Positions 17,863 through 37,053 of a DNA stretch of 64,000 nucleotides are shown here, one piece after another (position 1 is the stretch's first letter; each line of letters opens with the position of its first letter). Source of the DNA: Pseudomonadota bacterium (GTDB taxonomy: Bacteria; Pseudomonadota; Gammaproteobacteria; Burkholderiales; Nitrosomonadaceae); the NCBI GenBank assembly GCA_018240285.1, contig JAFEGA010000003.1, positions 18,097-82,096 on the forward strand. The letters run 5' to 3'. The notes below the pieces were generated by a model. The model did not search any database. It was not told where the DNA came from and saw only the letters and a program-made list of their open reading frames with translations. Both the position numbers and the translations under genes were made by a program.

Positions 17863-18705
17863 CTATTTTGATGAAGGAATCCATCGCCCATACACTTTGA
17901 TGATCATTCCCCAGTCTTTATGCCCCATTTGCTTGGCAACATCCATGTAGTGTGCCCCCCTTGAGAGCATAGTCGACGCGAAGGTGTGTCGGGTTTGATA
18001 TGGGTTGCAGTAGCTGATGTTGGCTTGATTCAGTGCCGGAATCCAGACTTTCTTGTGGATCGGTTGATCGTTTCTCCATGGCTGATGGGTATCCGGGTCG
18101 TGAAAAACAGTTTCATTCTGTTTTTTTGTGAAAGCCTGCTGATTGAGCAGCGCTTCTCTGGCTTGCGGCTGTAATGTGACTTCCCGTTTCCCCGATTTGG
18201 TTTTGGTGTCTTTCAGCTGTCCGCGAACGTAAGCGCTGCTAACAAATATCCGGTTGTTTTCAAAGTCTACATCCTGCCAGAGAAGCGCGATTAGTTCGGA
18301 AGTCCTGAGACTTGAATAAAAGGCGAACTGAATCAGGTTTTTTGCCTGGCCGGTCAGTTCGTTCAAGATTTTTGTTACTTCCTCTTGTGTGAACGGCTCA
18401 GGTTCGCGGGTTTCTTTGGGCAGATTCTTAACTCTTATTAGCGGGTTTTTATCGATGATTTCATCATGGCATAGCTCATCGAACATTTGGCGCAGTGGAA
18501 TAAGGATGTTGCCTTTGCGCTTGTTGGAACAAGGGAGTTCCGACAGCCATTCCTTGATTCTACTTGCAGTCAGTTCGGCAATAGGCAGATCGCCAAAAGT
18601 GGGGATCAAGTGATAATAAATCGCGCTGTTGTAGTCTTGTAGCGTGCCTTTCTGCTGTTTGGCTTGGTTGCGTTGCAGCCAGCTTATTATTGCTTCTTTA
18701 ATCGT
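17863..18705 (-). pseudogene. Tyrosine integrase, N-terminally truncated
   Basis: LRTSELIAL, LKDTKTKSG, NPYQTRHTFAS and QMGH catalytic motifs; the frame stays open upstream (…WLQRNQ…LQDYNSAIYYHLIP) but has no Arm domain or start. Confidence 0.85.
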
Positions 18706-20842: not shown

Positions 20843-21745
20843 AAACCTATCTCACCGAATGGCTGGAAAATAAACGACCGGTGCTGAAGGCCAGCACACA
20901 CAAAGACTACACAAAAACGCTGCTGAATATCATCGTGCCGCGCTTTGGCGCCACACTGCTGCACATGCTCACCCGCAACGATATCCGGCAATGGATCGCC
21001 ACAGTGGATTGCTCGAATAAACGCATCGCAAACATACTCAGCCCGCTTCGCGCCGCACTGCAAGACGCGCATCATGACGACCTGATTCAGTCAAATCCGC
21101 TGTTCAATTGGACGTATAAACGCAACGAGCACCGCCGCAGAAAATGCACGTTGACCCGTTTACACAGGACGAACAGCAAGCAATCATGGAAACCGCAACC
21201 GGACAAATCCGGAATCAGTGCATCGCATTTTTTTGGATAGGCATGCGCACCAGCGAATTGATCGCGCTGGAATGGACAGATATAGACTGGAAGCGTAAGA
21301 AAATCACAGTGAACAAAGCACTCACAACGGCCGCAGACTCGGACGAAACCACAAAAACAAAAACCGGAACGCGCGAAATCGACATGCTTGCGCCGGTAGA
21401 ACAAGCACTCATCGATCAGAAACAATACACGCTATTGCAAGGCAGAAAGATTTTTTTGAACCCGGCAACAGGGAAAATATGGACGGGAGATCAGCAGATC
21501 AGGAAAACTTTCTGGATCCCGTTATTGAAAAAAACAAAGGTTAGATACCGTAACCCATACCAAACGCGCCACACCTACGCATCCATGATGCTATCGGCCG
21601 GTGAGAATCCGGCATGGGTTTCAAGTCAAATGGGACACTCAAACATCATGATCACGCTGCGAACATACGCGCGATGGATACCCAGCGATAACAGCAAGGC
21701 GGCAAAGCTCTCAAGATGTTTTTTGCAAAAAACGCAGAAAAGTAA
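20599..21745 (+). pseudogene. Tyrosine integrase with Arm-type N-terminus, multiply frameshifted
   Basis: MG.KY(P)GVR..SESSIEIDIRY...RERLALKPT, then MRTSELIAL, TKTKTG, YRNPYQTRHTYAS and QMGH spread over at least 4 frames; points toward tRNA-Ser. Confidence 0.9.
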
Positions 21746-21862
21746 CAACAAAAAGACCGAAGATTTATCAGCCATACTGACCAAAACATGCAAAAAGATG
21801 ACCAATTATGACAAAATACAGTCATTATTTTGTATGTAAGTAATTGATAAATAAGTAAATGC

Positions 21863-22526: not shown

Positions 22527-25112
22527 TTACAACCCTAAATAGCCTTTTGCGATTCGATAATAAACAATCCGCAAGGGTTTGCCTTCACGTGTGATTATCA
22601 TGCTCTGTATCGGTCCGGGCTGATCGAGAAGTCTGGTGATGTCATTGCCAGCACGATCATGCTCAAGGTGTGGTCGCTCCATGCCAACCAGAATGATGGG
22701 CCGGGTGGTGGGCGCTTCCGATGGATGCCAGACTTCATACATGGCGCCGCTGTCGCCAAACATATTGCGTGAGCGGATATCCATTGGTTCACCATGCCGA
22801 TTGTAAAAAGACATCGCGCTGGAAACCGACCATTTACTCATGCCCACGACAAGCGGTTTTTGCCCTGTTTCCCGCTGCACATTTTCGGCAATCTTTTCGA
22901 TCTCGTTGGTGGTTTCGCGCCAATAGTAACGAGTCATGAATGACGGATAGGGTACTCCCGGAATCCCGAGCACGACGTAGTGCAGCACGAGCGTATAGGC
23001 CACGATGGAAATGGCGATGGTCGGCTTCCAGGCGGCTTGAATGCGGCCAACCATGCTGCGCGGATTGACATCCTGCCCCATCATCCATGCCATAGTCGGC
23101 ACTATGGCTAGCCAAAGGGGAGCGGTCCAATGAAAACGCAATGAATCAAACATACTTAAGACAATAAATATGACCAGCGGCACACCTGTGAAGATGCATA
23201 CAAACAGTTTACGTCTGTGTGCCATCTCACTGCTGTTTGGCTGGTTTTTGGGCAGCAGCGCCCAGAGTGCGGCAACCAAACCCACGGGCGATAACAGCAC
23301 CAGCAGATCTACGAGCATAAGATGGAGTGAAAATAAATCATCGCCGACACCGCGCACGCGCGATGACTGAAATACGATCGAAGACCAATGATGTTCCAGA
23401 TTCCAGATAATGACCGGGGAAAACAGTAGTAGCGCCAGCAATGCAGCAAGGTATGGATGGGGACGGATCAGCCAGCGGCGCGCAGCCGGATCGACAATTG
23501 CAAATAACAATGCGGCTATACCGAGCAATCCCAGCGTATATTTGGACAAAATGCCGAGACCAAATGCGATTCCCATACCCAGCCACGCCAAACTGCGGTT
23601 TGCGATCAAGGCGCGTTCCATGTAATAGAGCGTGGCAGCCCAGGCGGCCATCACCGGTGCATCCGTTGTCATGAGAAAGCCGGTGGCAAAGGTGAACGGC
23701 AAAATAGCCAGCAACAGCGCAGTGCGTATGGCGGTCGATTTGTCATACAGATTCTGTGCCAAAGCATACAGAAAACCCATCGTGATCAAACCGCAAAGAA
23801 ATGCACCAATCCTGACACCGAATTCAGTATCGCCGGCGACTGCGGTACCGAGCCAAATCAACCATGCCACCAGGGGCGGATGGTCGTAAAAGCTTAAATC
23901 CATGTGCTGCGCGTAATTCCAGTAGTACGCTTCATCTGGAATCAGCTCTGTTTGACCGAGGTAGATCAGACGCAGCAATACGATGAGTGCGATGATTCCA
24001 ATTGAAGCAACACGCCAGCGCACATCCGGAGCGGGTGAATTCTGTGTCGCGGATGGCAAGTAAAAGACGGATCCCAAGTAAACTATGATTGCGCTAACCG
24101 CAGTGGCGGGAAAAATAGCCAATAGCGGCGGCGTATGCCACTCATAAACCAGCAAAGCCAATAAGCCGCCACGCATGAACAGCGCAATACCGCCAAGCGC
24201 TGTAAAACGGCCAATCAGGCGCCAGTCCAGTTGTCCTTCTGGTTGTAGCCGGAATAATTCGCGTGAATTGAATGCGTACACTGCCGCAGCAGCGAGAAAG
24301 CTCACGATATGCGCCAATGCCACTCCGGCGCCGCTGCTCATCAATAGCTGGTAGATTACAATATCGATAAGCGCGCAAAACAGACCGGTTGTCACATGCC
24401 GCTTGGTATCATGAATAGCAACTGCACCGCCCGCAAGCACCATCAGCCTCTCTAAATAAGCCCATTGGTGGTGAAACGACAATTTCGAAGTGCCGCGTGT
24501 CCGGTCGCGAAAGCAGATGGGGATCTCAATAACTTTCAGTTTGCTTTGTCCAGCCATCAACAATTCGAGCAGAATCTTATAACCGCGCGCTTGCCCGGAA
24601 ACGGCTGAGGCCAGTTCGCGGCGGAAGGCAAAAAAGCCGGAAGTGGCGTCGTTGACATCGCATAGCGGGCGTGCCAGCCAGCCGCCAACGCGCGATAACC
24701 ATTGCCGGTGCAACGGCCAGCCTTCGGTACTGCCACCGGGAACGTAACGGCTGCCGACGGCGATATCGTGACTGCCGTTCAATACCGGTTCCACAAGCGC
24801 ATGTAGCCGCTCGGGCGGATGACTCAGATCGGCATCCATGACGACAATGACTTCGCTCTTCGCGGCAGCTGCGCCAGCCAGAATCGATGCGATCAAATCG
24901 GGCTTTTCCGTGCGCTCAATCAGTCTTACGTGCGCTTTTTCCTCCCAAGCATGAACTTTCTCGGATGTGCCGTCGCGCGAACCGTCGTCGACGAAAATAA
25001 CTTCAAAACTATCCGGCGGCAGATCCAATGCAAGTAGCGAATTTAATAAGGGATCGATGTTGTCAGCTTCATTCAATGTCGGAATGACGATGGAAAATTG
25101 TGTTGAGTGCAT
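22527..25112 (-). CDS. Fusion of DPM1-like GT2, GtrA-like domain and ArnT/GT39-like transferase
   Basis: IPTLNEADNI, VDDGSRDGT, MDADLSHPP, SGFFA (GT2); 4-TM GtrA-like middle; LIPDEAYYWNY...YDHPP (GT-C) with many TM segments. Confidence 0.88.
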   Translation of the reverse strand: MHSTQFSIVIPTLNEADNIDPLLNSLLALDLPPDSFEVIFVDDGSRDGTSEKVHAWEEKAHVRLIERTEKPDLIASILAGAAAAKSEVIVVMDADLSHPPERLHALVEPVLNGSHDIAVGSRYVPGGSTEGWPLHRQWLSRVGGWLARPLCDVNDATSGFFAFRRELASAVSGQARGYKILLELLMAGQSKLKVIEIPICFRDRTRGTSKLSFHHQWAYLERLMVLAGGAVAIHDTKRHVTTGLFCALIDIVIYQLLMSSGAGVALAHIVSFLAAAAVYAFNSRELFRLQPEGQLDWRLIGRFTALGGIALFMRGGLLALLVYEWHTPPLLAIFPATAVSAIIVYLGSVFYLPSATQNSPAPDVRWRVASIGIIALIVLLRLIYLGQTELIPDEAYYWNYAQHMDLSFYDHPPLVAWLIWLGTAVAGDTEFGVRIGAFLCGLITMGFLYALAQNLYDKSTAIRTALLLAILPFTFATGFLMTTDAPVMAAWAATLYYMERALIANRSLAWLGMGIAFGLGILSKYTLGLLGIAALLFAIVDPAARRWLIRPHPYLAALLALLLFSPVIIWNLEHHWSSIVFQSSRVRGVGDDLFSLHLMLVDLLVLLSPVGLVAALWALLPKNQPNSSEMAHRRKLFVCIFTGVPLVIFIVLSMFDSLRFHWTAPLWLAIVPTMAWMMGQDVNPRSMVGRIQAAWKPTIAISIVAYTLVLHYVVLGIPGVPYPSFMTRYYWRETTNEIEKIAENVQRETGQKPLVVGMSKWSVSSAMSFYNRHGEPMDIRSRNMFGDSGAMYEVWHPSEAPTTRPIILVGMERPHLEHDRAGNDITRLLDQPGPIQSMIITREGKPLRIVYYRIAKGYLGL

Positions 25113-25344: not shown

Positions 25345-26649
25345 ATGGGGATTGATTTAGGGTTTGACAGGATTGTCCGGGATTTAAGCGGTGCGAGATG
25401 GATTCTTTCTCAATTAACGGAAGATGATACGGCGGCAACGTCGATTCATCGCTATTTCCGGCGTATCGTCTGGAATGAGAGTGGTTTTGCGGATCGCTGT
25501 ATTATGCTGCTAGTGTTACCGCTTATGCCTATTTTGATCATTGCGCTGACAGTGGTTTTCACGGCGCTCAATGGATACGCGATAAAAAAACGGACGGGGA
25601 AAGGAATTGTCCGCCAAGCTTATGAGCAAATCGGTGTTGCATGCCGTTTTGCAATTTTACCACCCTGGTACTATATCTTTGAGTTACACGATGACGACAA
25701 AAGGCTGCGCGCCAATGAATATCTCAATCGTTTTGAAACGAAGGCCGGGCTGTACCTTTTTCTGCGGAATAATAACGGCGGACTTCCGGTTCCTGCCGAA
25801 CGCACGACGCAATGCATCCGGGACAAGACGCTCTTTATGGTACATTGCCGGAAAAATGGCGTTACCGCGGCGCCTATTCTTTGGATAATCAAGAATAAGG
25901 AAATTATACCGGTGGATTGGGATAAATCCGGTTTTCCGGAGTTTGATCTTTTCATCAAACCGCTGAACGGGCAAGGCGGCAGAGGGACGATCCGCTGGGA
26001 TTATCTGGAGGATGGGCAATTTCTCTGTAACGATGGAAGCCGCGCAAATGGAAGTCAGGTGCTCGAAATTCTGCGGCAAAATTCGGAACACACGGCTTAT
26101 ATCGTGCAACCACGGCTGATTAATCATCCCGAAATTGTTGATTTAGCCTGTGGCGCGTTGGCGACCGTGCGCGTTATGAGTTGCCGCAATGAAACGGGCG
26201 ATTATGAAGTCACCAATGCGGTCTTCCGCATGAAGCGCTACGCGGATGTAATCGTCGACAACTATCACGCAGGCGGCATTGCGGCCAATGTCGATATCGA
26301 AACGGGAGTGCTGGGGGCAGGCACGCGCGGCGGTTGGGGCGTGGTGACCGATGGCTGGTATGAAGAGCATCCCCTGTCGCATACCGCGATACCACAGCGT
26401 AAGCTTCCGTGCTGGGATACGATGATCGATTTTGTGCAGGATGCGCACAATCGCCTTTTCCCGGATCAAGTAGTCATTGGTTGGGATGTCGCCCTGCTCG
26501 AAAATGGTCCATGTCTGATCGAAGCGAATAAAGCACCGGATTTGGACATCATTCAACGCGCACAGAAAGGACCGCTGGGAAATGAGCGGCTCGGAAAACT
26601 CCTGGCATTCAATCTACAACGGACAATCGAAACCAAGTATGCGCATTGA
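25345..26649 (+). CDS. Sugar-transfer-associated ATP-grasp family protein
   Basis: DK..F, FIKPLNGQGGRG, IVQPRLINH, TVRV, DNYHAGG, GWDVA...LIEAN. Confidence 0.8.
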   Translation: MGIDLGFDRIVRDLSGARWILSQLTEDDTAATSIHRYFRRIVWNESGFADRCIMLLVLPLMPILIIALTVVFTALNGYAIKKRTGKGIVRQAYEQIGVACRFAILPPWYYIFELHDDDKRLRANEYLNRFETKAGLYLFLRNNNGGLPVPAERTTQCIRDKTLFMVHCRKNGVTAAPILWIIKNKEIIPVDWDKSGFPEFDLFIKPLNGQGGRGTIRWDYLEDGQFLCNDGSRANGSQVLEILRQNSEHTAYIVQPRLINHPEIVDLACGALATVRVMSCRNETGDYEVTNAVFRMKRYADVIVDNYHAGGIAANVDIETGVLGAGTRGGWGVVTDGWYEEHPLSHTAIPQRKLPCWDTMIDFVQDAHNRLFPDQVVIGWDVALLENGPCLIEANKAPDLDIIQRAQKGPLGNERLGKLLAFNLQRTIETKYAH

Positions 26650-26782: not shown

Positions 26783-27736
26783 ATGATCAATGAGCAACAT
26801 GTCTCCAAAAGCGATGAAACTGAAATCCTGAAAATGTTCACTATTGAGCCTGGAATGAATATGTCATCGCCTGAAGTGCAACGCGCGGCTATTCAAACTC
26901 TGGAAGGTGGAGGGCTTATTTATCTTCCGAAAGGAGGGTTTGAGCTTTCCGAGCGGGAAAGGGAATTGATATCCGATACCGCGAATATCCTGACGCGCGT
27001 ACCCGATGTTGAAAATGGCAAACCTACGATTATTTTCGACCCGAAAAACGGACATATCAAGAAATATCATTTTGCGCAAATACACGGCAAGATGGTGCGA
27101 GCCCAGATCAAAGACGCAGCTTATCGCGATCTGGAGGTCATTATGGCGCGTTATGGACAATGGACTGAGAATATCATCACTCAACTATTTCCCAGCTACC
27201 GCCAAGCACTGGACCGCAAACGGGTTACTTACCGCCCTTTTGCACGCAATAGCACGCAAGCGCTGCATATAGACTCAAGCTATGGTTACCCCACGCAAGG
27301 GAAAAGCATGTTGCGTGTTTTTACCAACATCAATCCGGTTGGCCGGTTACGGGTCTGGCAGCTCGGTGAGCCTTTTGAGCCTTTTGTGCAACGTTTTCTC
27401 CCCGGCGTGCATGTCAAAGGTCCTTCTTGGTTTTCTAAACTGTTAGCCCAGCTTGGTATCGTTGATGGTGTTAAGACTAAATATGATCAATACATTGCGG
27501 CGCTACGCGCACTCGGCATGCGTGATAAGGAATACCAATCCAGTGCTCCGCGCCAATTGATGGAATTTCCCGCCGGAGCAAGTTGGATTGCAATTACCGA
27601 TTTGGTGCTGCATGGTGCAATATCGGGGCAGCATAGTTTGGATCAGACATTTTATTTGCCAGTCGAAGCGATGAACGATCCAGCGCGTTCACCGTTGCGC
27701 ATTCTGGAAAGATTGACTGGTGAAGCGCTGACTTGA
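26783..27736 (+). CDS. Kdo hydroxylase (KdoO)-family dioxygenase
   Basis: LEGGGLIYLP, LHIDS (HxD), LRVFTNINP...RVW..GEPF, YDQY, F.AGASW...LHGAISGQ.SLDQTF. Confidence 0.8.
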   Translation: MINEQHVSKSDETEILKMFTIEPGMNMSSPEVQRAAIQTLEGGGLIYLPKGGFELSERERELISDTANILTRVPDVENGKPTIIFDPKNGHIKKYHFAQIHGKMVRAQIKDAAYRDLEVIMARYGQWTENIITQLFPSYRQALDRKRVTYRPFARNSTQALHIDSSYGYPTQGKSMLRVFTNINPVGRLRVWQLGEPFEPFVQRFLPGVHVKGPSWFSKLLAQLGIVDGVKTKYDQYIAALRALGMRDKEYQSSAPRQLMEFPAGASWIAITDLVLHGAISGQHSLDQTFYLPVEAMNDPARSPLRILERLTGEALT

Positions 27737-27796: not shown

Positions 27797-28888
27797 GTGA
27801 TGGAAATGAAGTCATCAGCAGAGGTGTATTTTGGCGGCCCGGATCAGTCCGCAGGTTATCTGCGCAATGTGCTGGAAGAGCACATTGCTGCTGTTCCATC
27901 CGGCGGATCGATTGATTGGGTTACATATTACTTTCGTGACCTGAAGCTGGCTGAAGCGCTTATTCAAGCGCGCAAGCGCGGTGTTAAGGTTACTTTAAGC
28001 CTGGCAGGTAAACCGCGCACCGCCGATGCTAACGATGCTGTGATTGCCATGCTATCGGGGCCGGAAGGTTTGGGCGATGGCTTGCGTCTCGTGACCTTCC
28101 CAGGGTTGCCAGCTCCGCCAGGGCGGACATGGGCGCCACAATTGCATGAAAAACTTTACTGCTTTTCTCATCCCAAACCCATTGCGTTTATCGGCTCATT
28201 TAATCCGTCCGGAAATCAGGCGGAAGAAAGGCTCGATATCATCCGCGAGATCGGCGATCAAGATAAGGGTTACAATACATTGATAGGACTTACCGATGCA
28301 GAGTTGGTTACGCAACTGGTAAAGCACGCGCGCAACCTGCATAAGGCACAGCCGGGATTGTTTTATCGTTTTTCGGCGGATGCCAATAAAGCGATCCAGA
28401 GTGGCGATACTACCCTTCATTTCTGGCCGCGTACGCGCTCGCATCCGGTGATGCAATTTTTAAGCAAAGTAAGCGATAATGCGCATGTACGCATTTTTGC
28501 GTCGCATATCAGGAGCAAAGCAGCGGTTAATTTTATGATTGAGCTGGCGAGCCGCGGCGTTGATTTGGAGATTTTCGCCGAGGCGACATACCGGCGTGTC
28601 ACATCGAAGGTCGAGCAACGCTTAATGTCCGCCGGAGTTCGCTTTAAGCGCAGCCGGAATACGGATGAGTTGCCGATGCATCTCAAGTTAGTGCTGGTGG
28701 AGGATCGCGGTCAAGTATGGTCTATTTTCGGTAGTTTTAACTGGACTAATCCATCCTTCTGGCTCAATCACGAGATTGCGGCTATTTCAAGCGATCCGGA
28801 ACTATTCAGAGTGTTTTCGGAGCGTTGTGATTGGATAGAAAAAAGGGATTTCGTACTACCTGTGCAAACAGATTTGGTCACTGCGTGA
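27797..28888 (+). CDS. Phospholipase D-superfamily protein, two degenerate HKD domains
   Basis: QLHEKLYCF...GSFN and MHLKLVLVED...GSFNWT...N.E. Confidence 0.8.
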   Translation: MMEMKSSAEVYFGGPDQSAGYLRNVLEEHIAAVPSGGSIDWVTYYFRDLKLAEALIQARKRGVKVTLSLAGKPRTADANDAVIAMLSGPEGLGDGLRLVTFPGLPAPPGRTWAPQLHEKLYCFSHPKPIAFIGSFNPSGNQAEERLDIIREIGDQDKGYNTLIGLTDAELVTQLVKHARNLHKAQPGLFYRFSADANKAIQSGDTTLHFWPRTRSHPVMQFLSKVSDNAHVRIFASHIRSKAAVNFMIELASRGVDLEIFAEATYRRVTSKVEQRLMSAGVRFKRSRNTDELPMHLKLVLVEDRGQVWSIFGSFNWTNPSFWLNHEIAAISSDPELFRVFSERCDWIEKRDFVLPVQTDLVTA

Positions 28889-28893
28889 TAAAA

Positions 28894-30381
28894 ATGACAA
28901 ATACAAACGTGGGAGATTCGGTTTCAACGCTTATTATTCCGGTTGAGAGTCAGGTACGTGAACTGGACGCCAAAATTCTTTTGGCGTGTTTCGCAGCCGA
29001 ACGTGGCTTTCCAGTATTGATCGGTTCACGGGCTTTTACGCATTTTCAGGTGGCGTCCATCCCGCGTGGCGTTTATCTCGCTAAAAGCATGCGCAGTCTC
29101 AGCAGTTCAATGTTCAAGGCGTTACGTCAATTGGGCCATGAAATTGTTGCCTGGGAAGAAGAAGCGCTGGTGCATCCGCCTGCCGATACCTATTTTACAC
29201 TGCGGCTTTCTCCGCAAACGATCAATAAAGTGTCGCATGTCTTCGCCTGGGGGCGAGAAAATGTCGATTTAATGCAGCAATACCCCGACCTGCCGCAGAA
29301 TCTGCCGATTCACATTACGGGCAATCCGCGCGGCGATATGCTGAGACCGGAATTACGTCCGTTTTTCGATCCCGAAGTTAAAAAGTTGCGCGATCGATAT
29401 GGCGATTTCATTCTGATCAACACGAATTTCAGCGATGTGAATCCTTTTATTCCCAGCATTGGCTTATTTCAGGGCACAAAGGATTCCGATAAGACGGCGC
29501 GCCGCGGTCAAGCGGGAATCGGTATGAGTCTTGAATTTGCCGAAGGTTTGCGCGATCACAAATTAGCGATACTGGAAGATTTCAAACAATTGATTCCGGC
29601 GCTCGAACGGGCATTTCCCGATATGACTATCGTTGTCCGTCCGCACCCCAGCGAGAGCAATCAAATTTATCAGGATCTCGCCGCGCGCAGCGATCGGATC
29701 GTAATCAACAAGGAAGGTAACGTCATCCCTTGGTTGCTGGCGGCGAAGGCACTGGTGCACAACGGCTGCACAACAGGCTTGGAGGCCTATGTTCTCGGCG
29801 TTCCGGCAGTTTCCTATCTGGCGACATTGAATAAGCTTTATGACTATGATTTTCAGGGATTGCCGACAAAACTCAGTTATCAGTGCTTCAATTTTGAAGA
29901 GCTGCGGGAGATATTGAACCGGATCCTGGCAGGGGAACTCGGCGGCGCTGGCGGCGAAGAGCGCCAGGCCCTGATCGATTATTATCTGGCGGCACAGAAA
30001 GGCCCCTTGGCATGCGAACGCATTATCGATGTGCTGGAATCCAGCGGTTATTCTAAAAACCACCCGCCGCCCAGCCCACTGAGCACTTTTGCACAAGGGT
30101 GGTTATTCGTAAAAATTAAAGCGGCATTGACCAATCTCTACATGCGCCGTCCCGGACCCAACCGGTTGGCTTATCACGATCATCGTTTTCCGGAAATTTC
30201 AGTAGCTGATCTGGAGCAAAAGATCACCCGTTTTGGCCAGCTTCTGAATCGTTTTGATACGATCAAAATCGAACAACACTCAAAGCATCTTTTCATGATT
30301 CGTTCCCAATACGGAAGAAAAATGCCGCAAACCGCGCCTGCGGCGGAAATCAGTGAAAATTTCCGCGCTGTAAAAGAGTGA
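28894..30381 (+). CDS. Surface carbohydrate biosynthesis protein (TIGR04396-like, GT-B-type fold)
   Basis: IPVESQVRELDAKILLA, WEEEALV, TGNPRGDMLR, ILINTNF, VRPHPSE, VHNGCTTGLEA; start ATG 28894. Confidence 0.75.
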   Translation: MTNTNVGDSVSTLIIPVESQVRELDAKILLACFAAERGFPVLIGSRAFTHFQVASIPRGVYLAKSMRSLSSSMFKALRQLGHEIVAWEEEALVHPPADTYFTLRLSPQTINKVSHVFAWGRENVDLMQQYPDLPQNLPIHITGNPRGDMLRPELRPFFDPEVKKLRDRYGDFILINTNFSDVNPFIPSIGLFQGTKDSDKTARRGQAGIGMSLEFAEGLRDHKLAILEDFKQLIPALERAFPDMTIVVRPHPSESNQIYQDLAARSDRIVINKEGNVIPWLLAAKALVHNGCTTGLEAYVLGVPAVSYLATLNKLYDYDFQGLPTKLSYQCFNFEELREILNRILAGELGGAGGEERQALIDYYLAAQKGPLACERIIDVLESSGYSKNHPPPSPLSTFAQGWLFVKIKAALTNLYMRRPGPNRLAYHDHRFPEISVADLEQKITRFGQLLNRFDTIKIEQHSKHLFMIRSQYGRKMPQTAPAAEISENFRAVKE

Positions 30382-30418: not shown

Positions 30419-31204
30419 ATGAAAAAAATTTTTCATCGGTACTTTTATAAAAGACCGATCCGTAATCTCGCGACGCAGATCAAGTCAGTGGTTGATTCTC
30501 TGGACGGTTCGGTGCCGGTACTGATCGTGTCTTATAATAACGGCGTTTACGTCGACCATTGTGTGCGGCAACTCAACACCCGTTCCATTAAACCGGTCAT
30601 TATCGACAATGCTTCCAAGGACGCCGAGACGCTCGCCATTCTTTCCGGGATCGCTGCGGCAAAAAGCGCTTTCGTCGTGCGATCAGCGGTTAACATGGGT
30701 GCGCGCGTAGGGTTTCAAGGACCGGTGTACGATGTTTTGCCGGATATATTCGGTTATACCGATCCGGACCTGCTGTTTAACCGGCACTTACCGGCGGATT
30801 TCATCCAGCAGCTGACGGATGTTTGCGATCGTTTCAAATGCTTCAAGGCCGGCTTTGCTCTGCCTTACCAGGTTGAATACAGTTTGACCGATCGCCGTAT
30901 GAAATCAAGCTTGGGCAATATCGTTCCTTTCGATAGACTCGTGACGGTGCCCCAATGGGAGTCGCGCTTTTGGCGTAAACCGCTCAAGCATGATCGGTTG
31001 GAAGTGTATGCCGCGCCTATCGATACAACGTTTGCGATTTATTGCAAAAAATACTATAACGGAGATTTTTTCGATGCCGTGCGCGTTGCCGGGGATTTTT
31101 CCGCGTTGCACATGCCGTGGTTTCCTGATTTGGATCTGCTGTCACCACAGCACCGCTCAGCTTACCTGAAAGGCAATAAATCATCGACTTGGGTCACCAA
31201 TTAG
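30419..31204 (+). CDS. Glycosyltransferase family 2-like protein
   Basis: LIVSYNN, IIDNAS, YTDPD (DxD) and APIDTTFA motifs. Confidence 0.65.
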   Translation: MKKIFHRYFYKRPIRNLATQIKSVVDSLDGSVPVLIVSYNNGVYVDHCVRQLNTRSIKPVIIDNASKDAETLAILSGIAAAKSAFVVRSAVNMGARVGFQGPVYDVLPDIFGYTDPDLLFNRHLPADFIQQLTDVCDRFKCFKAGFALPYQVEYSLTDRRMKSSLGNIVPFDRLVTVPQWESRFWRKPLKHDRLEVYAAPIDTTFAIYCKKYYNGDFFDAVRVAGDFSALHMPWFPDLDLLSPQHRSAYLKGNKSSTWVTN

Positions 31205-31336: not shown

Positions 31337-32215
31337 ATGAAAGTACCTAAGGTAATTGCCGAAATCGGTTGTAATCATAAAGGTGACATGGAAATCGCCA
31401 GGGAAATGATCGGAATTGCAGCGACATTTGCGAAATGCGATTTTGTAAAGTTCCAGAAGCGCTCCAACAGGGAACTGCTGACGCCGGAAGAATATAATGC
31501 ACCGCATCCCAATGCGCAGAACAGCTATGGCGATACTTATGGCGCACATCGGGAATTTTTGGAATTTGACGTCGATCAGCACCGGCAATTGCAGCAATAC
31601 TGCAAGGAGTTCGGTATCGGTTACTCAACCTCCGTGTGGGATCTGACTTCGGCGCAGCAAATTGCCGGACTCAACCCTGTGTTCATCAAAATACCTTCCG
31701 CGTGCAATCTCAATTTCCCGATGCTCGAATTTCTCGCCAGAGATTATCGCGGTGACATTCACATCTCCGTCGGTATGACCACGCATGAGGAGCAAGAACA
31801 AATCGTACAATTGATGGAAAAATGCAATGCCGCCGAGCGCGTTGTTTTATATGCCTGTACTTCCGGTTATCCCGTTCCATTTGATCAAGTGTGCTTGCTT
31901 GAGCTGCAAACGCTGAATAAGCGCTTCGGTTCGCGCATCAAGGAAATTGGATTTTCCGGGCATCATTTGGGAATTGCCGTCGATATCGCGGCGGTTGCGT
32001 TGGGTGCGTCCTGGATTGAGCGTCATTTCACCCTGGATCGCACCTGGAAGGGAACCGATCATGCGGCATCGTTGGAACCGGATGGTCTGCGCCGTCTGGT
32101 GCGGGATGTGCACGCTGTTTCTCAGGCGCTGACCTTCAAGGATGCGCCGATACTGGCAATCGAAGCACCGCAGCGCGCCAAGCTGAAACGGGTGCAGGGG
32201 GTACATTTCAACTGA
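31337..32215 (+). CDS. Short NeuB-family nonulosonate(-9-phosphate) synthase lacking the SAF/AFP domain
   Basis: IAEIGCNHKG, VKFQKR, IKIPSA, GFSGHH, ERHFTLD...DHAASLEP; 292 aa. Confidence 0.9.
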   Translation: MKVPKVIAEIGCNHKGDMEIAREMIGIAATFAKCDFVKFQKRSNRELLTPEEYNAPHPNAQNSYGDTYGAHREFLEFDVDQHRQLQQYCKEFGIGYSTSVWDLTSAQQIAGLNPVFIKIPSACNLNFPMLEFLARDYRGDIHISVGMTTHEEQEQIVQLMEKCNAAERVVLYACTSGYPVPFDQVCLLELQTLNKRFGSRIKEIGFSGHHLGIAVDIAAVALGASWIERHFTLDRTWKGTDHAASLEPDGLRRLVRDVHAVSQALTFKDAPILAIEAPQRAKLKRVQGVHFN

Positions 32216-33381
32216 TGCGCTGGGTTGCTTTTATGCCGCTGCGCGCCAATTCAAAATCCATCGTCGATAAAAATGTGCGTGCTATCGCAGGGCGGCCACT
32301 GTTTGCATGGAGTCTGGAACAAGCGATTGCCTCGCAGTGTTTCGACGAAATTTACGTGGCATCCGATTCCGCAAGAATCCGCGAGAAAGTACTGAATGAA
32401 TTTCCGGCAGGGGTGACGGTGCTGGATCGCTCTGCCGAAACGTGCACCGACACGGCCAGCACGGAAAGCGCCATGCTCGAGTTCAAGCAACGCGCTGCTT
32501 TCGATGTGTTGTGTTTGATCCAGGCCACTTCGCCGCTCACGCGTGCGGAAGATTTCATTGCGGCTAAGCAGAAGTTTCAAAATGAACATCTCGATTCCTT
32601 GTTAACGGCGGTGGAATCCAAGCGGTTTTATTGGACCAGTGACGGTACGCCGATCAATTACGACCCGTTAAAGCGTCCGCGGCGCCAGGATTTTGCAGGG
32701 TGCATGATGGAAAATGGCGCTTTTTATTTCACCCGGCTGGAAATCCTTGAGGAATCCGGCAACCGGCTGGGCGGGCGTATCGGCATTCATGAAATGGCGC
32801 CGGAGACAGCGATCGAGATCGATGATGAAACCGACTGGATCATCGTTGAGCAGTTGTTGTTGCGGCAAAAGCTGATGAAGCACAGCGCATACGCCGGGCA
32901 AGTGAAAATACTGGTGCTGGATGTCGATGGCACCTTTACCGATGGCGGCATGTACTATGGGCCGGAGGGCGAGGCATTGAAAAAATTCAACACGCGCGAT
33001 GCGCATGGTTTGCAACTGCTGCGCAAGAACGGCATCGGTGTTTGCGTCATGAGCAGCGAAAACAGCCCCGCCGTTGCGGCGCGAATGAAAAAACTCGGCA
33101 TCGAGGAATACTATCCGGGCGTCAACGACAAACTTGCGCAATTGAGAGAACTGGCAAGCCGCAAGGGGATTGCGTTGCAAGACATTGCTTATATCGGTGA
33201 CGATCTGTGCGATTTGGCCTGTCTCGAGCATGTAGGTTTTGCCTGTTGCCCGGCCGATGCAGTGCCGGAAGTTTTGCAAAAAGCCCGTTATGTTTGCGAA
33301 CATTCCGCCGGCCACGGCGCCGTGCGTGAAGTTTGCGATCTTATTGTAAAAATCAAAAATTCCGGCCGGATTACTGCGTAG
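32215..33381 (+). CDS. CMP-nonulosonate cytidylyltransferase fused to a KdsC-like HAD phosphatase
   Basis: PLRANSKSIVDKN, LIQATSP, ENGAFY, EIDD; then LDVDGTFTDG, FNTRD, YIGDDLCD, ADA...GGHGAVRE-type tail. Confidence 0.92.
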   Translation: MRWVAFMPLRANSKSIVDKNVRAIAGRPLFAWSLEQAIASQCFDEIYVASDSARIREKVLNEFPAGVTVLDRSAETCTDTASTESAMLEFKQRAAFDVLCLIQATSPLTRAEDFIAAKQKFQNEHLDSLLTAVESKRFYWTSDGTPINYDPLKRPRRQDFAGCMMENGAFYFTRLEILEESGNRLGGRIGIHEMAPETAIEIDDETDWIIVEQLLLRQKLMKHSAYAGQVKILVLDVDGTFTDGGMYYGPEGEALKKFNTRDAHGLQLLRKNGIGVCVMSSENSPAVAARMKKLGIEEYYPGVNDKLAQLRELASRKGIALQDIAYIGDDLCDLACLEHVGFACCPADAVPEVLQKARYVCEHSAGHGAVREVCDLIVKIKNSGRITA

Positions 33382-33444
33382 GTATGCGCCATCGGTCACT
33401 TGTCGAATGAATAATGGTTGTGCTGGTTCCTCACAAAAAATGAC

Positions 33445-34725
33445 ATGAGAGCACTCTTCTTTCTTCGTCATTACAACGATATCGATCATATCACCCCGGT
33501 TATTTTCAAATGGGTCAAATCCGGTCATGTTTGCGATGTGGTGCTGATCGGTCATCGCACTATCCGTAACGATTACCGCATTGAGTTCCTGCGCAAGCTG
33601 CCGGACGTGCGGGTGGCGCATATCCGTGATGTATTGACGCCGTTGCAATATCTGTTGTGGCGGCTGCAAACGTTGTTATTGTCACCGGGCATGAAGCGCT
33701 CGTTGCTAAAACCTTTGGCACAGAAAGCGATTGAAATTTACGGTACCGGAAACCGGCAGAAAGTTTGGCGCGATACGGCCGGAAAAGTGCTGGAGAGAAG
33801 TTTTACCGGTAGCGGCAAAGGTGTGGTTGTATTCGACTGGGTGACCCGGAATTCCCCGGTGTGCATCGAGTGGGTCGAAACCGTTATTGCCATGGCGCAC
33901 GATAGAGGCCTTGGCGCGGTTTCACTGCCGCACGGTGATAGTCCGCACGCCAATCACCTGATCCGGCGCGGTGAGTGGAAATTGCAGCCGGATACCATGT
34001 ATTCCGCCGGTTGTTTATTCGATAAAGTCGTGGTGCCGAATGAATTGTGCGCTGTGCGTTTCCGGCCTTTCATGCAACCACAATCGATCGCAGTGCTGGG
34101 GTCGCCACGTTACTGCACCGAATGGCTGGATAAATTGGCGGTATTACAACCGCCTTCACCGCTCGCACGTTCCGCTAGCCGCCTTAAATTGGTCATCTTC
34201 TTGCGCAAAAGCGATTTCACCACATTCTGGGAAGAAGTCGGTGAAGTGGTGCAGATGATCGCGGCTTTTCCCGGTGTTGAAATCATCATCAAACCGCACA
34301 CCCGCGGCGGCTGGCGTCAGCCTCTGACACGAAATGCGGTCATTTTACGTTTGCCGAATGTAAGCATCGCGGCAGATGATGTACACTCCGTTCATTTATT
34401 GAATTGGGCGGATGTCGTCATGGATCTCGCAACTTCGGTTGTTTTTGAGGCAGTTGTCGCAGGAAAACCAGTGCTGGCGGCGGATTATCTGCACGCGGGC
34501 CGCTCCGTTGTGGCCGACTATATGCCCGAAACCGAATTGCGCTGCCGCGATGATGTATACCAAAGAATCGGCGAGTTGATATCGTCAGGTTGCGGTTCAT
34601 TTTACGATGAAGAACACCGGCAGCGTTTTCTCAAGGAAATTATCCATGGTTGCGGAGATGAGGATGTTTTACCGCGCTATGTAGCACTACTGGAAGAAAG
34701 TTGCCGCCTCCGCGAAATACGGTAA
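33445..34725 (+). CDS. Hypothetical GT-B-like protein, candidate nonulosonate transferase
   Basis: NDIDHITP, LPHG, GSPRY, IKPHTR, TSVVFEA motifs like polysaccharide transferases; follows the CMP synthetase; start ATG 33445. Confidence 0.55.
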   Translation: MRALFFLRHYNDIDHITPVIFKWVKSGHVCDVVLIGHRTIRNDYRIEFLRKLPDVRVAHIRDVLTPLQYLLWRLQTLLLSPGMKRSLLKPLAQKAIEIYGTGNRQKVWRDTAGKVLERSFTGSGKGVVVFDWVTRNSPVCIEWVETVIAMAHDRGLGAVSLPHGDSPHANHLIRRGEWKLQPDTMYSAGCLFDKVVVPNELCAVRFRPFMQPQSIAVLGSPRYCTEWLDKLAVLQPPSPLARSASRLKLVIFLRKSDFTTFWEEVGEVVQMIAAFPGVEIIIKPHTRGGWRQPLTRNAVILRLPNVSIAADDVHSVHLLNWADVVMDLATSVVFEAVVAGKPVLAADYLHAGRSVVADYMPETELRCRDDVYQRIGELISSGCGSFYDEEHRQRFLKEIIHGCGDEDVLPRYVALLEESCRLREIR

Positions 34726-34732: not shown

Positions 34733-35797
34733 ATGGAAAATCCGGAAACGCAAGCCACTGCCAAGACTGTTGACGTCGTAATTCCGGTTTATAACGCACC
34801 GGAATTGACGAAGCGGTGTATCGATTCAATCGTTACTCACCTGGGAAAATCCATACAGCGCGTGCTCATTCAGGATGATGCATCCGGCTGTGAAACGCGT
34901 GAGATGCTGGACCATCTGCCGTATCCCTGCGTCGAAGTTTGTCATGCGGAAAAAAACCAGGGATTTGGTTTGACGGTCAATGCGGCCGTTGGCCGTTCGA
35001 ATGCTTTTTATGTGCTGATTTTAAACTCCGATACCGAAGTCAATCAGAACATTCTGCCGCAACTCTGCGCGGCATTCGATGCCGACGATAAACTGGCGGC
35101 CATCATTCCGGCGGGCAACAGCTATAACCGTTTCGATTTCAGCCGCTACGCATTGCACGAGGGAAATTATATTCAGACTTACTATCTTCGTGGCCATGCC
35201 ATTCTGATCCGCCGCGACGCCTTCTTGGCAGTTGGCGGCTTCGATGCCACATTCGGCCGCGGATACTACGAAGATATCGACCTTGGCCGCCGCCTCGATT
35301 TGAACGGCTGGCGTTTTGGCGTTCACCCCAACGTTCATATTTATCATAAAGGCGCAGGATCGTTCGGCGAGGATCGCATCCAACTGGCGCGGCGGAATCG
35401 TGCCGTGTACTTGTCGCGCTATCCCGAAGCGCAACAAAATATTCTATTGCTTTCGGGCAATTGCGCGCTGGCGGATTTCAATGAAGATTTTCTTCAAGCC
35501 ATTGAGCAAAGATTCCATGCCGGCGGGTCCGTTCATTGGTTTTCGCCGGCACAACCTTCCCATTTGAGCTGCTTACAAATGCATGGCTACGCTGCGCGGC
35601 TAAGAATGATATTGAAAGTATTATCACGCGGCTGGCAGCGCGCCGACAGACGCGTGACAGAAATATGGATCGCACCGGGCGCTCCCTTTTTTTTGCGCGC
35701 ACTGCTGACTGTTTGGGCTCATTGGCAGAATCTTAAGATCTTGGTATTTAAAGAGGCTATGACGCAAGATCCTGCTACCAAACTCAGAGTAAAATGA
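34733..35797 (+). CDS. Glycosyltransferase family 2 protein
   Basis: VVIPVYN, QDDAS, NQGFG..VN, ILNSD, FGRGYYEDIDL. Confidence 0.88.
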   Translation: MENPETQATAKTVDVVIPVYNAPELTKRCIDSIVTHLGKSIQRVLIQDDASGCETREMLDHLPYPCVEVCHAEKNQGFGLTVNAAVGRSNAFYVLILNSDTEVNQNILPQLCAAFDADDKLAAIIPAGNSYNRFDFSRYALHEGNYIQTYYLRGHAILIRRDAFLAVGGFDATFGRGYYEDIDLGRRLDLNGWRFGVHPNVHIYHKGAGSFGEDRIQLARRNRAVYLSRYPEAQQNILLLSGNCALADFNEDFLQAIEQRFHAGGSVHWFSPAQPSHLSCLQMHGYAARLRMILKVLSRGWQRADRRVTEIWIAPGAPFFLRALLTVWAHWQNLKILVFKEAMTQDPATKLRVK

Positions 35798-35925: not shown

Positions 35926-36717
35926 TCATCGGGTTGTGGTGCTCCCCTGCTCCCGGTGCTTCTTGATCAGATCGTAGGCAGTTTGCACTTCCTGGGCTTG
36001 CTCGGTTGCTACCGCGATCATATCCTCCGGCACACCCTGCCCCATCAGTTTATCCGGATGATATTGACTCATCAGTTTGCGGTACGCGCGTTTGATTTCC
36101 TGATCGGTGCTGTCTTTACTGACGCCCAGTGCTTTGTAGGCATCGTCGAGAGCATTGGCCGAGCTGGCGCCGCCCGCGGCAAAGTGCATTTGGTTCATCA
36201 CCATGTCGAGCAATTGCTCGAATGCCGCCGGGTGATAATCCAAGCGGCCGGCGATGACGCGCAACAGATCTTCTTCGGCAGTATTCAATTGCCCGTCGGA
36301 TAACCCCATGATAATGAGATACACCAGCAGCATCTGCCGAAGATTGCGGGAATGGCCGCATACGGCGAGGAATTCGTTGAGTTGCGGATGAATATCGTAA
36401 TCCGGGGAAGCACCTTGCTTGAACAGCGCGATGGCTTTCAACCGGTGTTCGCGCGTCATACGCAGTTTATGCATGAACTGCTCGACGTGCGACACTTCAC
36501 TTTCGGATACCCGGCCGTCCGCCTTGGCCAGTTTTCCCATGAAAATAAAAACGGTTTCCAAAAAAACCACCTGACGGCGTGCGGCATTGAACGGATTGAC
36601 CCCACCGGGGCCGTAAGCCACCAGCCGGTCAATCACACTACCGCCGATCAGGCCGAGAATAAGACCGAAAAAACCCAGCGCCCAAAAACCGAATATCGCC
36701 CCCAGTAGTTTGAACAT
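35926..36717 (-). CDS. djlA: Co-chaperone DjlA
   Basis: N-terminal TM, TerB-like KLAKADGRVSESE, C-terminal J domain with YHPDK. Confidence 0.92.
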   Translation of the reverse strand: MFKLLGAIFGFWALGFFGLILGLIGGSVIDRLVAYGPGGVNPFNAARRQVVFLETVFIFMGKLAKADGRVSESEVSHVEQFMHKLRMTREHRLKAIALFKQGASPDYDIHPQLNEFLAVCGHSRNLRQMLLVYLIIMGLSDGQLNTAEEDLLRVIAGRLDYHPAAFEQLLDMVMNQMHFAAGGASSANALDDAYKALGVSKDSTDQEIKRAYRKLMSQYHPDKLMGQGVPEDMIAVATEQAQEVQTAYDLIKKHREQGSTTTR

Positions 36718-36764
36718 GGCGATTTCCCGTCAACAATCAGGTGTAAAAGCAGCGTAACCGGTCA

Positions 36765-37007: not shown

Positions 37008-37053
37008 TTCAATTCTCCTTCACGCATGATGGTCATGCAAAACAAATGTAACG

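Follow-up and report, generated by a model that had tools for sequence, protein, structure and literature searches.

KdoO is an Fe/2-oxoglutarate/O2 enzyme that hydroxylates C3 of Kdo to give Ko in LPS. To our knowledge, no other deoxy-sugar hydroxylase with this fold has been characterized, and the assembly of the LPS core is the one setting from which KdoO is known. The dioxygenase described here belongs to the same Pfam family and shares the fold and the HxD...H triad with the KdoO enzymes of B. ambifaria and Y. pestis and with the structures from M. infernorum (5y9i, 5y9x, and 6a2e). True KdoO proteins are 31-38% identical to it over the full length, with a value of 32% for this reference KdoO, and all cofactor residues are kept. 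However, its host lacks Kdo2-lipid A, its score is 211 bits against an equivalog cut-off of 300, and it falls into a separate clade (hereafter clade A). Compared with KdoO, it has 8 residues fewer in the loop preceding HxD and an N-terminal segment extended by 10-20 residues, and it carries Arg in place of His225. Canonical KdoO genes come without a ligase, whereas those of clade A have an obligate partner, an ATP-grasp ligase gene, to which one of them is fused.

Three further systems offer partial parallels. MicC of the minviopeptin pathway is a KdoO-fold 2-oxoglutarate enzyme with a peptide substrate (PMC12912966), which takes the KdoO fold beyond Kdo substrates, but it is just a remote structural relative of the dioxygenase. 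In C. jejuni, the ATP-grasp enzyme Cj1438C amidates a sugar carboxylate inside the capsule polymer (PMC11800379). This C-terminal amidoligase of Cj1438 resembles the partner ligase in being an ATP-grasp protein of a surface-polysaccharide locus and serves as a model for the possible role of that ligase, but it belongs to a TupA-like Pfam family rather than to ATPgrasp_ST and targets the C6 carboxylate of GlcA. We know of no dioxygenase partner of Cj1438. Finally, the Kdn pathways of Bacteroides thetaiotaomicron and Prymnesium parvum combine, like the locus described below, a NeuB-family synthase with a KdsC-type HAD phosphatase and a cytidylyltransferase and include no ManNAc-forming epimerase. 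Our locus differs in that its synthase, at 292 aa, is short and lacks the SAF domain and in that phosphatase and cytidylyltransferase form a single fusion protein, as in vertebrate CMAS; moreover, neither domain of this fusion reaches its curated equivalog cut-off.

The dioxygenase and its catalytic residues

The window analyzed here is a 64,000-nucleotide stretch of contig JAFEGA010000003.1 from a member of the Nitrosomonadaceae (assembly GCA_018240285.1). The dioxygenase gene and the codons of its key residues are located as follows.

26783..27736, + strand: KdoO-like Fe(II)/2-oxoglutarate dioxygenase, 317 aa, clade A member (PF11004, NF053719, PDB 5y9i, fold, and tree)
27266..27274, + strand: codons of H162-I163-D164, predicted metal ligands 1 and 2 (HxD), aligned to KdoO H146/D148
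27506..27508, + strand: codon of R242, in place of KdoO His225 (alignment with 5y9i)
27611..27613, + strand: codon of H277, predicted metal ligand 3, aligned to KdoO H260

The genome has no second Kdo_hydroxy gene, and the 317-aa reading frame of this one is uninterrupted, with zero stops. The Pfam Kdo_hydroxy profile (PF11004) matches the product with 283.6 bits (E = 1.9e-84; cut-off, 25) over positions 2-275 of 275, and a sequence search of the PDB retrieves the KdoO structure from Methylacidiphilum infernorum (5y9i; E = 4e-44). The AlphaFold2 model (pLDDT 89.8) has the KdoO jelly-roll fold: Foldseek aligns it to the crystal structure 5y9x with an E value of 9e-31 and TM scores of 0.79/0.84, and the next fold, KanJ, reaches a TM score of 0.40.

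The alignment bears out the intact HxD...H triad of a KdoO-family Fe/2-oxoglutarate dioxygenase that had been claimed in an earlier note on this DNA, with H162/D164/H277 matching KdoO H146/D148/H260. These positions are near-invariant in the family alignment (first His in 143 of 147 rows, Asp in 141, third-ligand His in 143). Also kept are R151, R178, R190, and W192, which align to R127, R162, R174, and W176 of KdoO, a set that we take to bind 2-oxoglutarate. The roles of the KdoO triad and of the 2-oxoglutarate-binding residues reportedly go back to Joo et al. (2018). With dN/dS values of 0.04-0.06 against its orthologues, the dioxygenase gene is under strong purifying selection.

A separate branch of the KdoO family

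In a tree of 147 sequences (LG+G4, quick search, branch support by SH-aLRT only), a split with an SH-aLRT value of 99 separates the 40 rows of clade A from the remaining 107, in which the canonical rows are representatives of 50% clusters. Two sequence features follow this split. The loop before HxD has 10 residues in 38 of the 40 clade A rows versus 18-19 residues in 94 of the 107 others, and the position of His225 (M. infernorum numbering) is occupied by Arg in 38/40 and by His in 94/107, respectively. We take His225 of KdoO to adjoin the active site and to be catalytically important. The dioxygenase carries all the marks of clade A, namely, the 10-residue loop (R151-H162), Arg242, an adjacent ATPgrasp_ST gene, and placement inside the clade. 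Its score against the NCBIfam KdoO equivalog model NF053719 (210.9 bits; cut-off, 300) lies within the range of six other clade A proteins (194-240 bits) as opposed to that of five canonical-clade proteins (374-432 bits). As judged from these sequence comparisons, clade A represents a separate, previously uncharacterized branch of the KdoO family that is distinct from the LPS enzyme. The clade-specific change of His to Arg and the loop deletion offer enzymologists direct handles on substrate specificity.

The missing LPS pathway of the host

The genome, which is 99.98% complete, encodes no WaaA, LpxC, or LpxB, and tblastn searches of it with Burkholderiales WaaA and LpxC queries gave zero matches. 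KdsA was not found in it either; its two DAHP_synth_1 genes encode AroG and a DAHP-synthase-like protein. Within the genus, LpxC is encoded in 0 of 12 genomes surveyed and WaaA in 1 of 12, versus 8/8 sister families, and neither gene is found within 10 kb on either side of the KdoO-family loci examined. The lack of the lipid A/Kdo pathway has already been published for N. europaea and Nitrosospira (Opiyo 2010, PMC3087551). The host, a Nitrosomonas-type ammonia oxidizer, is thus predicted to make neither Kdo nor lipid A. Since WaaA, LpxC, LpxB, and KdsA are all missing, the dioxygenase should have a substrate other than LPS.

An ATP-grasp ligase as the conserved partner

The gene preceding that of the dioxygenase, on the same strand, ends 134 nucleotides upstream of it.

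25345..26649, + strand: ATPgrasp_ST carboxylate-amine ligase, 434 aa, conserved partner of the dioxygenase (PF14397, 116 bits)

This ligase is the truly conserved partner of the clade A dioxygenases. In 29 tree rows, all of them in clade A, its gene lies no more than 4 kb from that of the KdoO-like protein, compared with 0 of the 16 rows with known context among the other 107; for this comparison, related loci were gathered with a clade-level alignment, and canonical KdoO genomes (e.g., Burkholderia and Yersinia) are under-sampled. Altogether, there are about 30 adjacent loci from six or more phyla, including those from Nitrosomonadaceae, Nitrospira, Binatia, Chloroflexia, Salinisphaera, Nitrococcus, and delta/gamma MAGs. 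A ligase of the same type (~450 aa) is present in 28 of 28 KdoO-like-positive Nitrosomonadaceae genomes, and a single protein of 759 aa (P0123) is a natural fusion of the ATPgrasp_ST and Kdo_hydroxy domains. The KdoO fold thus appears to be in use where LPS is missing, in a previously undescribed conserved partnership with an ATP-grasp ligase.

The Pfam family ATPgrasp_ST owes its name to an association with sugar transferases. The predicted structure of the ligase is closest to those of amino acid ligases (Ddl, RimK, L-amino-acid ligase, and LysX), and its sequence weakly matches the alpha-L-glutamate ligase-like model TIGR02291. A PDB sequence search with the ligase found no match, an ESM Atlas search returned just the Pfam name, and a full-text literature search for PF14397/ATPgrasp_ST yielded nothing relevant. 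The earlier note had overlooked this gene directly upstream.

The surrounding glycan locus

The ligase-dioxygenase pair is embedded in a set of genes for surface glycan synthesis.

22527..25112, - strand: GT2-GtrA-PMT_2 (ArnC/GtrA/ArnT-like) three-domain fusion, divergent from the ATP-grasp gene (PF00535, PF04138, and PF13231)
27797..28888, + strand: PLD-like (HKD) protein (PLDc_2, 85.5 bits), syntenic in 16 related loci
28831..30381, + strand: TIGR04396 "surface carbohydrate biosynthesis protein," putative nonulosonate transferase (406.9 bits; weak BFO_1060 match)
30419..31204, + strand: GT2-like protein, 261 aa (weak Glycos_transf_2 match, 16.3 bits), syntenic in the closest Nitrosomonas loci
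31337..32215, + strand: short NeuB-family nonulosonate synthase, 292 aa, without the C-terminal SAF domain, probable Kdn-9-P synthase (PF03102, 241.9 bits)
32215..33381, + strand: fusion of a CMP-sugar synthetase with a KdsC/Kdn-9-P-phosphatase-type HAD domain (CTP_transf_3 and Hydrolase_3)
33418..34725, + strand: BFO_1060-like putative glycosyltransferase (weak NF046086 match, 21.9 bits), syntenic in 15 loci
34733..35797, + strand: GT2 glycosyltransferase (Glycos_transf_2, 64.1 bits)

The earlier note had placed the dioxygenase beside Kdn-type genes, and the NeuB-family synthase and the synthetase/phosphatase fusion indeed lie 3.6 kb downstream of it on the same strand. The synthase, the sole NeuB-family protein of the genome, scores below the NCBIfam equivalog cut-offs for NeuB and PseI. 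The HAD domain of the fusion matches KdsC with 158.5 bits, below the cut-off, and Kdn-9-P phosphatase with 141.5 bits (cut-off, 180); the best PDB matches are PpNeuA (9t4z) for the N-terminal domain and KdsC structures for the C-terminal domain. We infer a Kdn-type pathway rather than a Neu5Ac one because Epimerase_2 proteins (NeuC/WecB) are absent from the genome and PpNeuA is the best solved relative of the CMP-synthetase.

The GT2-GtrA-PMT_2 fusion adjoins the pair in 16 loci from Nitrosomonadaceae and Nitrospira. Tyrosine-recombinase fragments and a low-GC stretch are found directly upstream of the locus. In a scan of the locus for promoters and terminators, the sites were no more numerous than in shuffled sequences, and a literature search for nonulosonic acids in Nitrosomonas found nothing relevant. 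For the biology of nitrifiers, the locus offers testable candidates for surface glycan components of ammonia oxidizers without lipid A: Kdn, modified Kdn, and an ArnT-like transferase fusion.

Phyletic distribution of the pair

Among high-quality Nitrosomonadaceae genomes, all 21 that encode a KdoO-like protein belong to the 28 with a short NeuB, and 0 of the 66 genomes without NeuB encode one; these genomes are related and hence phylogenetically non-independent, and a shared island could be the cause of the co-occurrence. The association persists even with 230 kb between the two genes or with the genes on different contigs; they share a contig in 17 genomes, with a spacing of 3.6-20 kb in 16 of these. 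The KdoO-like gene is patchily distributed in the genus (7 of 51 genomes). Cultured carriers of the pair include Nitrosomonas supralitoralis APG5, Nitrosomonas sp. Nm34, and Nitrosospira multiformis Nl7, Nl12, and Nl18. In some Nitrosospira loci, the pair adjoins a second ulosonate route (HpcH aldolase and CTP_transf_3), and in four Nitrosospira loci it is flanked by PGA_cap and amidohydrolase genes instead of neuB.

Outside the nitrosomonads, NeuB is found in none of the five whole genomes of pair carriers (0/5) and in none of the non-Nitrosomonadaceae loci within 10 kb on either side of the pair. We therefore rejected NeuB linkage as a defining feature of clade A. The phylogeny suggested in the earlier note, which asked whether NeuB-linked homologues form a clade of their own, thus gave a divided answer: the clade stands apart from canonical KdoO, but NeuB linkage does not define it. 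A Chloroflexia MAG (G137) has no NeuB, no WaaA, and no bona fide KdsA (best match, 120 bits versus a cut-off of 314); since this carrier lacks any ulosonic acid pathway, clade A as a whole cannot depend on ulosonic acid.

In the non-nitrosomonad carriers, the third conserved gene encodes a ThuA-like protein rather than a sugar-acid enzyme. No ThuA-like gene is found in nitrosomonad carriers, and the ThuA-like proteins have no match in PDB sequence or NCBIfam searches. The flanks of the pair outside the nitrifiers are heterogeneous and include genes for a methyltransferase, an FAD oxidoreductase, an aldehyde dehydrogenase, peptidase M20, and citrate synthase. Glycosyltransferases do recur at the pair, with a GT4 gene between the two genes in Nitrospira and a GT2 gene in Salinisphaera.

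Predicted function

The reading that we tentatively prefer, with a confidence slightly short of even, is that of a non-LPS hydroxylase paired with an ATP-grasp ligase in the optional tailoring of the surface glycan of this locus, most likely on a Kdn-type sugar. We predict that the dioxygenase, with its KdoO fold, is catalytically active as an Fe(II)/2-oxoglutarate hydroxylase; together with the ATPgrasp_ST ligase encoded upstream, it would form a two-enzyme module, acting as an optional cytoplasmic tailoring step for the glycan of the surrounding genes. A Kdn-type nonulosonate, a 3-deoxy-2-ulosonic acid, would be produced by the short NeuB together with the HAD phosphatase and the CMP-synthetase. 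This acid would be the likeliest target of the dioxygenase, with hydroxylation falling on its 3-deoxy carbon as in the conversion of Kdo to Ko, and the ligase would probably amidate a carboxylate of the same unit. In this scheme, we infer the substrate, the hydroxylated position, and the group attached by the ligase; Arg in place of His225 could also mean a chemistry different from that of KdoO.

The proposal of the earlier note that 3-hydroxy-Kdn is formed survives in part: it agrees with the gene occurring in Nitrosomonadaceae only together with a short NeuB but leaves out the same pair in NeuB-free genomes. We regard it as conceivable, if rather doubtful, that LPS-less ammonia oxidizers carry a new surface 3-hydroxy-Kdn, which would be the nine-carbon counterpart of Ko and possibly amidated at a carboxylate by the partner ligase, made by a module that has spread among Nitrosomonas, Nitrosospira, and Nitrospira, in which case clade A would consist of new lipid-A-independent hydroxylases of deoxy-sugar acids (or aminoacyl sugars).

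Alternatively, the dioxygenase may leave the sugar alone and hydroxylate, or otherwise oxidize, an amino acid or a short peptide, which the ligase would join to a glycan or some other acceptor, with the Kdn locus being one of several contexts that recruit the module. The ligase, as the only universally conserved partner and one with a natural fusion, resembles Ddl, RimK, L-amino-acid ligase, and LysX and weakly matches TIGR02291, and the module is present in NeuB-free genomes, one of them without Kdo genes. The PGA_cap (poly-glutamate-capsule-type) and amidohydrolase genes at four Nitrosospira loci point the same way, and a changed substrate would also be in keeping with the shorter loop and the replacement of His225 by Arg. 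The precedent of MicC acting on a peptide (PMC12912966) is weakened by its remoteness, and the full-length identity of 31-38% to true KdoO with all cofactor residues kept speaks against this reading, as do the repeated proximity of the pair to two distinct types of ulosonate genes and the fact that in Nitrosomonadaceae the gene never occurs without the short NeuB pathway. On balance, we consider a peptide or amino acid substrate unlikely, if a serious competitor.

It is still less probable that the ATP-grasp/KdoO-like (plus ThuA-like) module makes or modifies a soluble small molecule that has nothing to do with the envelope and is, in nitrosomonads, a hitchhiker on a mobile glycan island. Such a role would accord with the heterogeneous flanks outside the nitrifiers, the ThuA-like third member there, the patchy distribution in the genus, and the recombinase fragments and low-GC stretch next to our locus. 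However, hitchhiking leaves unexplained why the dependence on NeuB in nitrosomonads holds for unlinked genes, the nitrosomonad carriers have no ThuA-like gene, and both the glycosyltransferases at the pair in Nitrospira and Salinisphaera and the origin of the ATPgrasp_ST name connect the module to sugar transfer.

Ordinary hydroxylation of the outer Kdo of Kdo2-lipid A to Ko during LPS core assembly, the "simpler option" of the earlier note, matches the Pfam membership, the intact triad, and the fold but is extremely improbable and was rejected, given an LPS pathway missing from the genome and the genus, the score below the KdoO equivalog cut-off, the different clade, the Arg for His225, and the shorter loop.

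In public databases, proteins of the clade A type are annotated as "Kdo hydroxylase family protein" or "Kdo hydroxylase." Such naming is misleading for a clade whose members miss NCBI's own equivalog threshold.

Integrity of the KdoO-like gene

The KdoO-like gene (window positions 26783 to 27736, + strand) is real, intact, and under selection, as shown by its full-length open frame, family match, fold, retained residues, and dN/dS. Its 317 open codons match Pfam Kdo_hydroxy over the whole length (283.6 bits, E value of 1.9e-84), and no other Kdo_hydroxy gene is present in the genome; the closest named homologues of its product come from Nitrosomonas and Nitrosospira. The protein matches the KdoO of Methylacidiphilum infernorum, which has a crystal structure, with an E value of 4e-44, and its AlphaFold2 model (36 homologues as input; pLDDT 89.8) aligns with KdoO structures at TM-scores of 0.79/0.84, the second-ranked fold being KanJ (TM 0.40). 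The HxD...H triad reported in the earlier note is indeed present as H162-x-D164...H277, aligned with that of KdoO. R151, R178, R190, and W192 correspond in the alignment to R127, R162, R174, and W176 of KdoO, which we take to be 2-oxoglutarate ligands; these residue roles reportedly go back to Joo et al. 2018. The triad and all four of these residues are nearly invariant across 147 family members, and dN/dS against orthologues with 85 to 96% protein identity is 0.04 to 0.06.

A host without the LPS substrate

The genome (2.97 Mb in 48 contigs, 99.98% complete) encodes no WaaA, LpxC, or LpxB; tblastn searches of it with WaaA and LpxC queries from sister families gave no match, and its two DAHP_synth_1 genes encode AroG and a DAHP-synthase-like protein, neither of which is KdsA. 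LpxC was found in 0 of 12 congeners (closed genomes among them) and WaaA in 1, while both are present in all 8 of the order's other families compared. This genus-wide absence agrees with the report that, of the lpx genes, N. europaea has lpxK alone and Nitrosospira multiformis lpxA alone (Opiyo et al. 2010; PMC3087551). Ordinary Ko formation on Kdo2-lipid A, the simpler option of the earlier note, is therefore unavailable in this host, and a classical KdoO, for all the likeness in fold, can be practically dismissed. The same genome encodes a full-length LptD homologue (G000:C12:68934-70034; 331 bits, 745-aa frame). The presence of this LPS-export outer-membrane protein without LpxC, LpxB, WaaA, or KdsA suggests a different glycolipid as its export substrate.

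A separate clade of KdoO-like proteins

The phylogenetic tree comprised 147 rows, namely, the loci and representatives of 50%-identity clusters (643 clusters at E ≤ 0.001 from 1.84 billion proteins searched). It was built by a quick LG+G4 search with SH-aLRT as the sole support, and the studied KdoOs of Burkholderia and Yersinia enter it only through cluster representatives and PDB alignment. A single branch (SH-aLRT 99) separates 40 rows, referred to here as clade A, from the remaining 107. Every row whose KdoO-like gene adjoins an ATP-grasp gene (29 in total) belongs to clade A, and the ligase is found in none of the 16 other rows of known context (Caulobacteraceae, Hyphomicrobium, Methylococcus, Terriglobia, Opitutae, and others). 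Five clade A rows have no recognized ligase in the locus: in three, the contig ends less than 400 bases away or is itself 2.4 kb long, and in L036 and L037 none was recognized, with an unannotated 406-aa open reading frame (ORF) directly upstream in L036.

Clade A proteins keep the cofactor residues and have an N-terminal segment that is 10 to 20 residues longer. The R151-H162 loop spans 10 residues in 38 of 40 rows, as opposed to 18 or 19 in 94 of the 107 others, and the position of KdoO His225 is occupied by Arg in 38 of 40, with His in 94 of 107 others; P81/T82, Y167, G278, and D287 are further discriminating positions. The NCBI curated KdoO equivalog model (cut-off, 300 bits) separates the two groups cleanly, with scores of 374 to 432 bits for canonical proteins and 194 to 240 bits for clade A. 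The window protein shares fold and cofactor chemistry with KdoO but differs from KdoO proper in three defining respects: the equivalog score, His225, and the substrate pathway in the host. A separate clade for NeuB-linked homologues, which the earlier note proposed to look for, holds as far as separation from canonical KdoO is concerned; however, the clade includes carriers without NeuB, and the shared partner is the ligase.

KdoO-like copies from Nitrospira/Nitrospirales metagenome-assembled genomes (MAGs; L032, L033, and L034) are 68 to 71% identical to the window copy. Of these, L032 and L034 were included in the tree and nest within the Nitrosomonadaceae subclade, which suggests, from sequence, transfer of the gene between nitrifiers. 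In the Nitrospira loci, a GT4 gene lies between ligase and dioxygenase, and the L032 and L034 MAGs also contain an extra, more distant ATP-grasp/KdoO-like/ThuA-like module (L044, L043).

The ATP-grasp ligase as the conserved partner

Searches of 67 loci of named organisms with each of the ten locus proteins placed NeuB and the CMP-synthetase fusion in Nitrosomonadaceae alone. In Nitrosomonas, Nitrosospira, Nitrosovibrio, Nitrospira, Binatia, Chloroflexia, Salinisphaera, Nitrococcus, and delta-/gammaproteobacterial MAGs, no more than 4 kb separates the KdoO-like gene from an ATP-grasp gene, which in most cases directly precedes it in the same orientation. In the metagenomic protein P0123 (759 aa), ATPgrasp_ST (residues 155 to 414) and Kdo_hydroxy (residues 483 to 755) are naturally fused in one chain, and the ~450-aa ligase type is found in 28 of 28 KdoO-like carriers among Nitrosomonadaceae. 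The closest structures to the ligase model (AlphaFold2; pLDDT 89.3) are those of D-Ala-D-Ala ligase, RimK, L-amino-acid ligase, and LysX, all of them carboxylate-amine ligases. An active-looking Fe(II)/2-oxoglutarate oxygenase and an ATP-dependent carboxylate-amine ligase act as a unit, a pairing for which we found no description in the literature; by their cofactor needs, both are cytoplasmic. Non-nitrosomonad modules have a ThuA-like gene as their third conserved component (13 loci), and the other flanking genes are heterogeneous. A second ATPgrasp_ST paralogue (G000:C43:258285-259106; 330 bits) belongs to a near-core ~350-aa type that 50 of the 51 genomes from this genus carry, irrespective of the KdoO-like gene.

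The window locus and a putative Kdn-type route

The locus consists of a fusion gene divergent from a run of nine same-strand genes, in this order:

22527-25112 (-), GT2-GtrA-PMT_2 fusion
25345-26649 (+), ATP-grasp_ST ligase (first of the nine)
26783-27736 (+), KdoO-like gene
third, PLD-like protein
fourth, TIGR04396 surface-carbohydrate protein
fifth, GT2-like protein
sixth, short NeuB, 292 aa
seventh, cytidylyltransferase fused to a KdsC/Kdn-9-P-phosphatase-type HAD domain
eighth, BFO_1060-like protein
ninth, GT2

The earlier note's placement of the gene beside Kdn-type genes holds: the short NeuB and the cytidylyltransferase/HAD fusion are in the same co-oriented run. The genome has no second NeuB and no member of the UDP-GlcNAc 2-epimerase family, and the best solved relative of the cytidylyltransferase is PpNeuA. 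From these features, a Kdn-type route (condensation of a sugar-6-P with PEP, dephosphorylation, and CMP activation) is a reasonable inference, not a proven one, since synthase and phosphatase score under every curated equivalog cut-off.

The divergent fusion is a single 861-aa polypeptide with an ArnC/GtrB-like GT2 and an ArnT-like GT-C PMT_2 domain, amounting to a full polyprenyl-phosphate-sugar "make, flip, transfer" system. In 16 loci it borders the ATP-grasp/KdoO-like pair, and a 62% identical paralogue is encoded elsewhere in the genome (G000:C43:176420-178990). Just upstream of the glycan locus are two truncated tyrosine-recombinase/integrase-like ORFs (17863-18609, -; 21144-21839, +) and a GC dip to 0.41-0.46 (16 to 22 kb), features that would suit the edge of a genomic island and the patchy occurrence of the locus across the genus. 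Downstream (35926-41885, -) lie genes for DjlA, an ABC-2-type exporter that could serve the locus glycan, and a lipid-binding protein:

37054-37809 (-), ABC-2-type permease
37806-38723 (-), ABC-2-type ATPase
39114-39734 (-), MlaC/HpnM-like lipid-binding protein

Distribution and possible substrates

Among 121 Nitrosomonadaceae genomes, the KdoO-like gene is present in 28, including 7 of 51 in the genus of the window and 20 of 43 in a second genus. All 21 high-quality carriers fall among the 28 high-quality genomes with short NeuB, and none of the 66 without it (including the unpublished G092 and G100, which lack both genes) has the KdoO-like gene; these are counts among related genomes, without phylogenetic correction. 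The three carriers without short NeuB are genomes 62 to 81% complete. The two genes share a contig in 17 genomes, 3.6 to 20 kb apart in 16 of them, and the dependence on NeuB is also seen at a separation of 230 kb (G028) and across contigs (Nitrosospira sp. Nsp11 and Nsp1, Nitrosovibrio tenuis). Production of a small molecule by a module that merely rides on the glycan island, as the heterogeneous flanks elsewhere might allow, appears improbable beside this pattern. Seven high-quality genomes have short NeuB without the KdoO-like gene, as expected of an optional tailoring step. In the congener G114 (C1:29051-29499), a decayed KdoO-like gene, in two fragments with a stop codon, lies ~9 kb from short NeuB, an example of a tailoring gene lost and a pathway kept.

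A second ulosonate-type route (HpcH aldolase, 2-hydroxyacid dehydrogenase, CTP_transf_3) neighbors the pair in several Nitrosospira loci. In L019, L020, L021, and L024, this putative route lies ~4 to 9 kb downstream of the KdoO-like gene and comprises NTP_transferase, HAD, epimerase, D-2-hydroxyacid dehydrogenase, HpcH/HpaI aldolase, and CTP_transf_3 cytidylyltransferase. The nitrosomonad subclade therefore looks tied to a ulosonic acid. We consider it a fair chance, short of even, that in this genome the pair tailors a Kdn-type residue of the locus glycan: the dioxygenase would hydroxylate its 3-deoxy carbon, in analogy to the action of KdoO on Kdo and as the earlier note had raised, and the ligase would form an amide at one of this unit's carboxylates. 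The model for the latter step is the Cj1438 amidoligase, which places an amide on a sugar-acid carboxylate, that of GlcA in the capsule of C. jejuni (PMC11800379).

Clade A as a whole cannot be defined as a ulosonate hydroxylase, given its other carriers. None of five non-nitrosomonad carriers has NeuB in the whole genome; four have WaaA, and the fifth, a single Chloroflexia MAG of completeness not known, lacks both WaaA and a bona fide KdsA (best match 120 bits; cut-off, 314). Four Nitrosospira loci have the pair flanked by PGA_cap and amidohydrolase genes, and MicC, a remote enzyme of the KdoO fold, acts on a peptide (PMC12912966). An amino acid or peptide attached by the ligase is, accordingly, a less likely but serious candidate for the target of the dioxygenase, set against the tie of the nitrosomonad genes to short NeuB.
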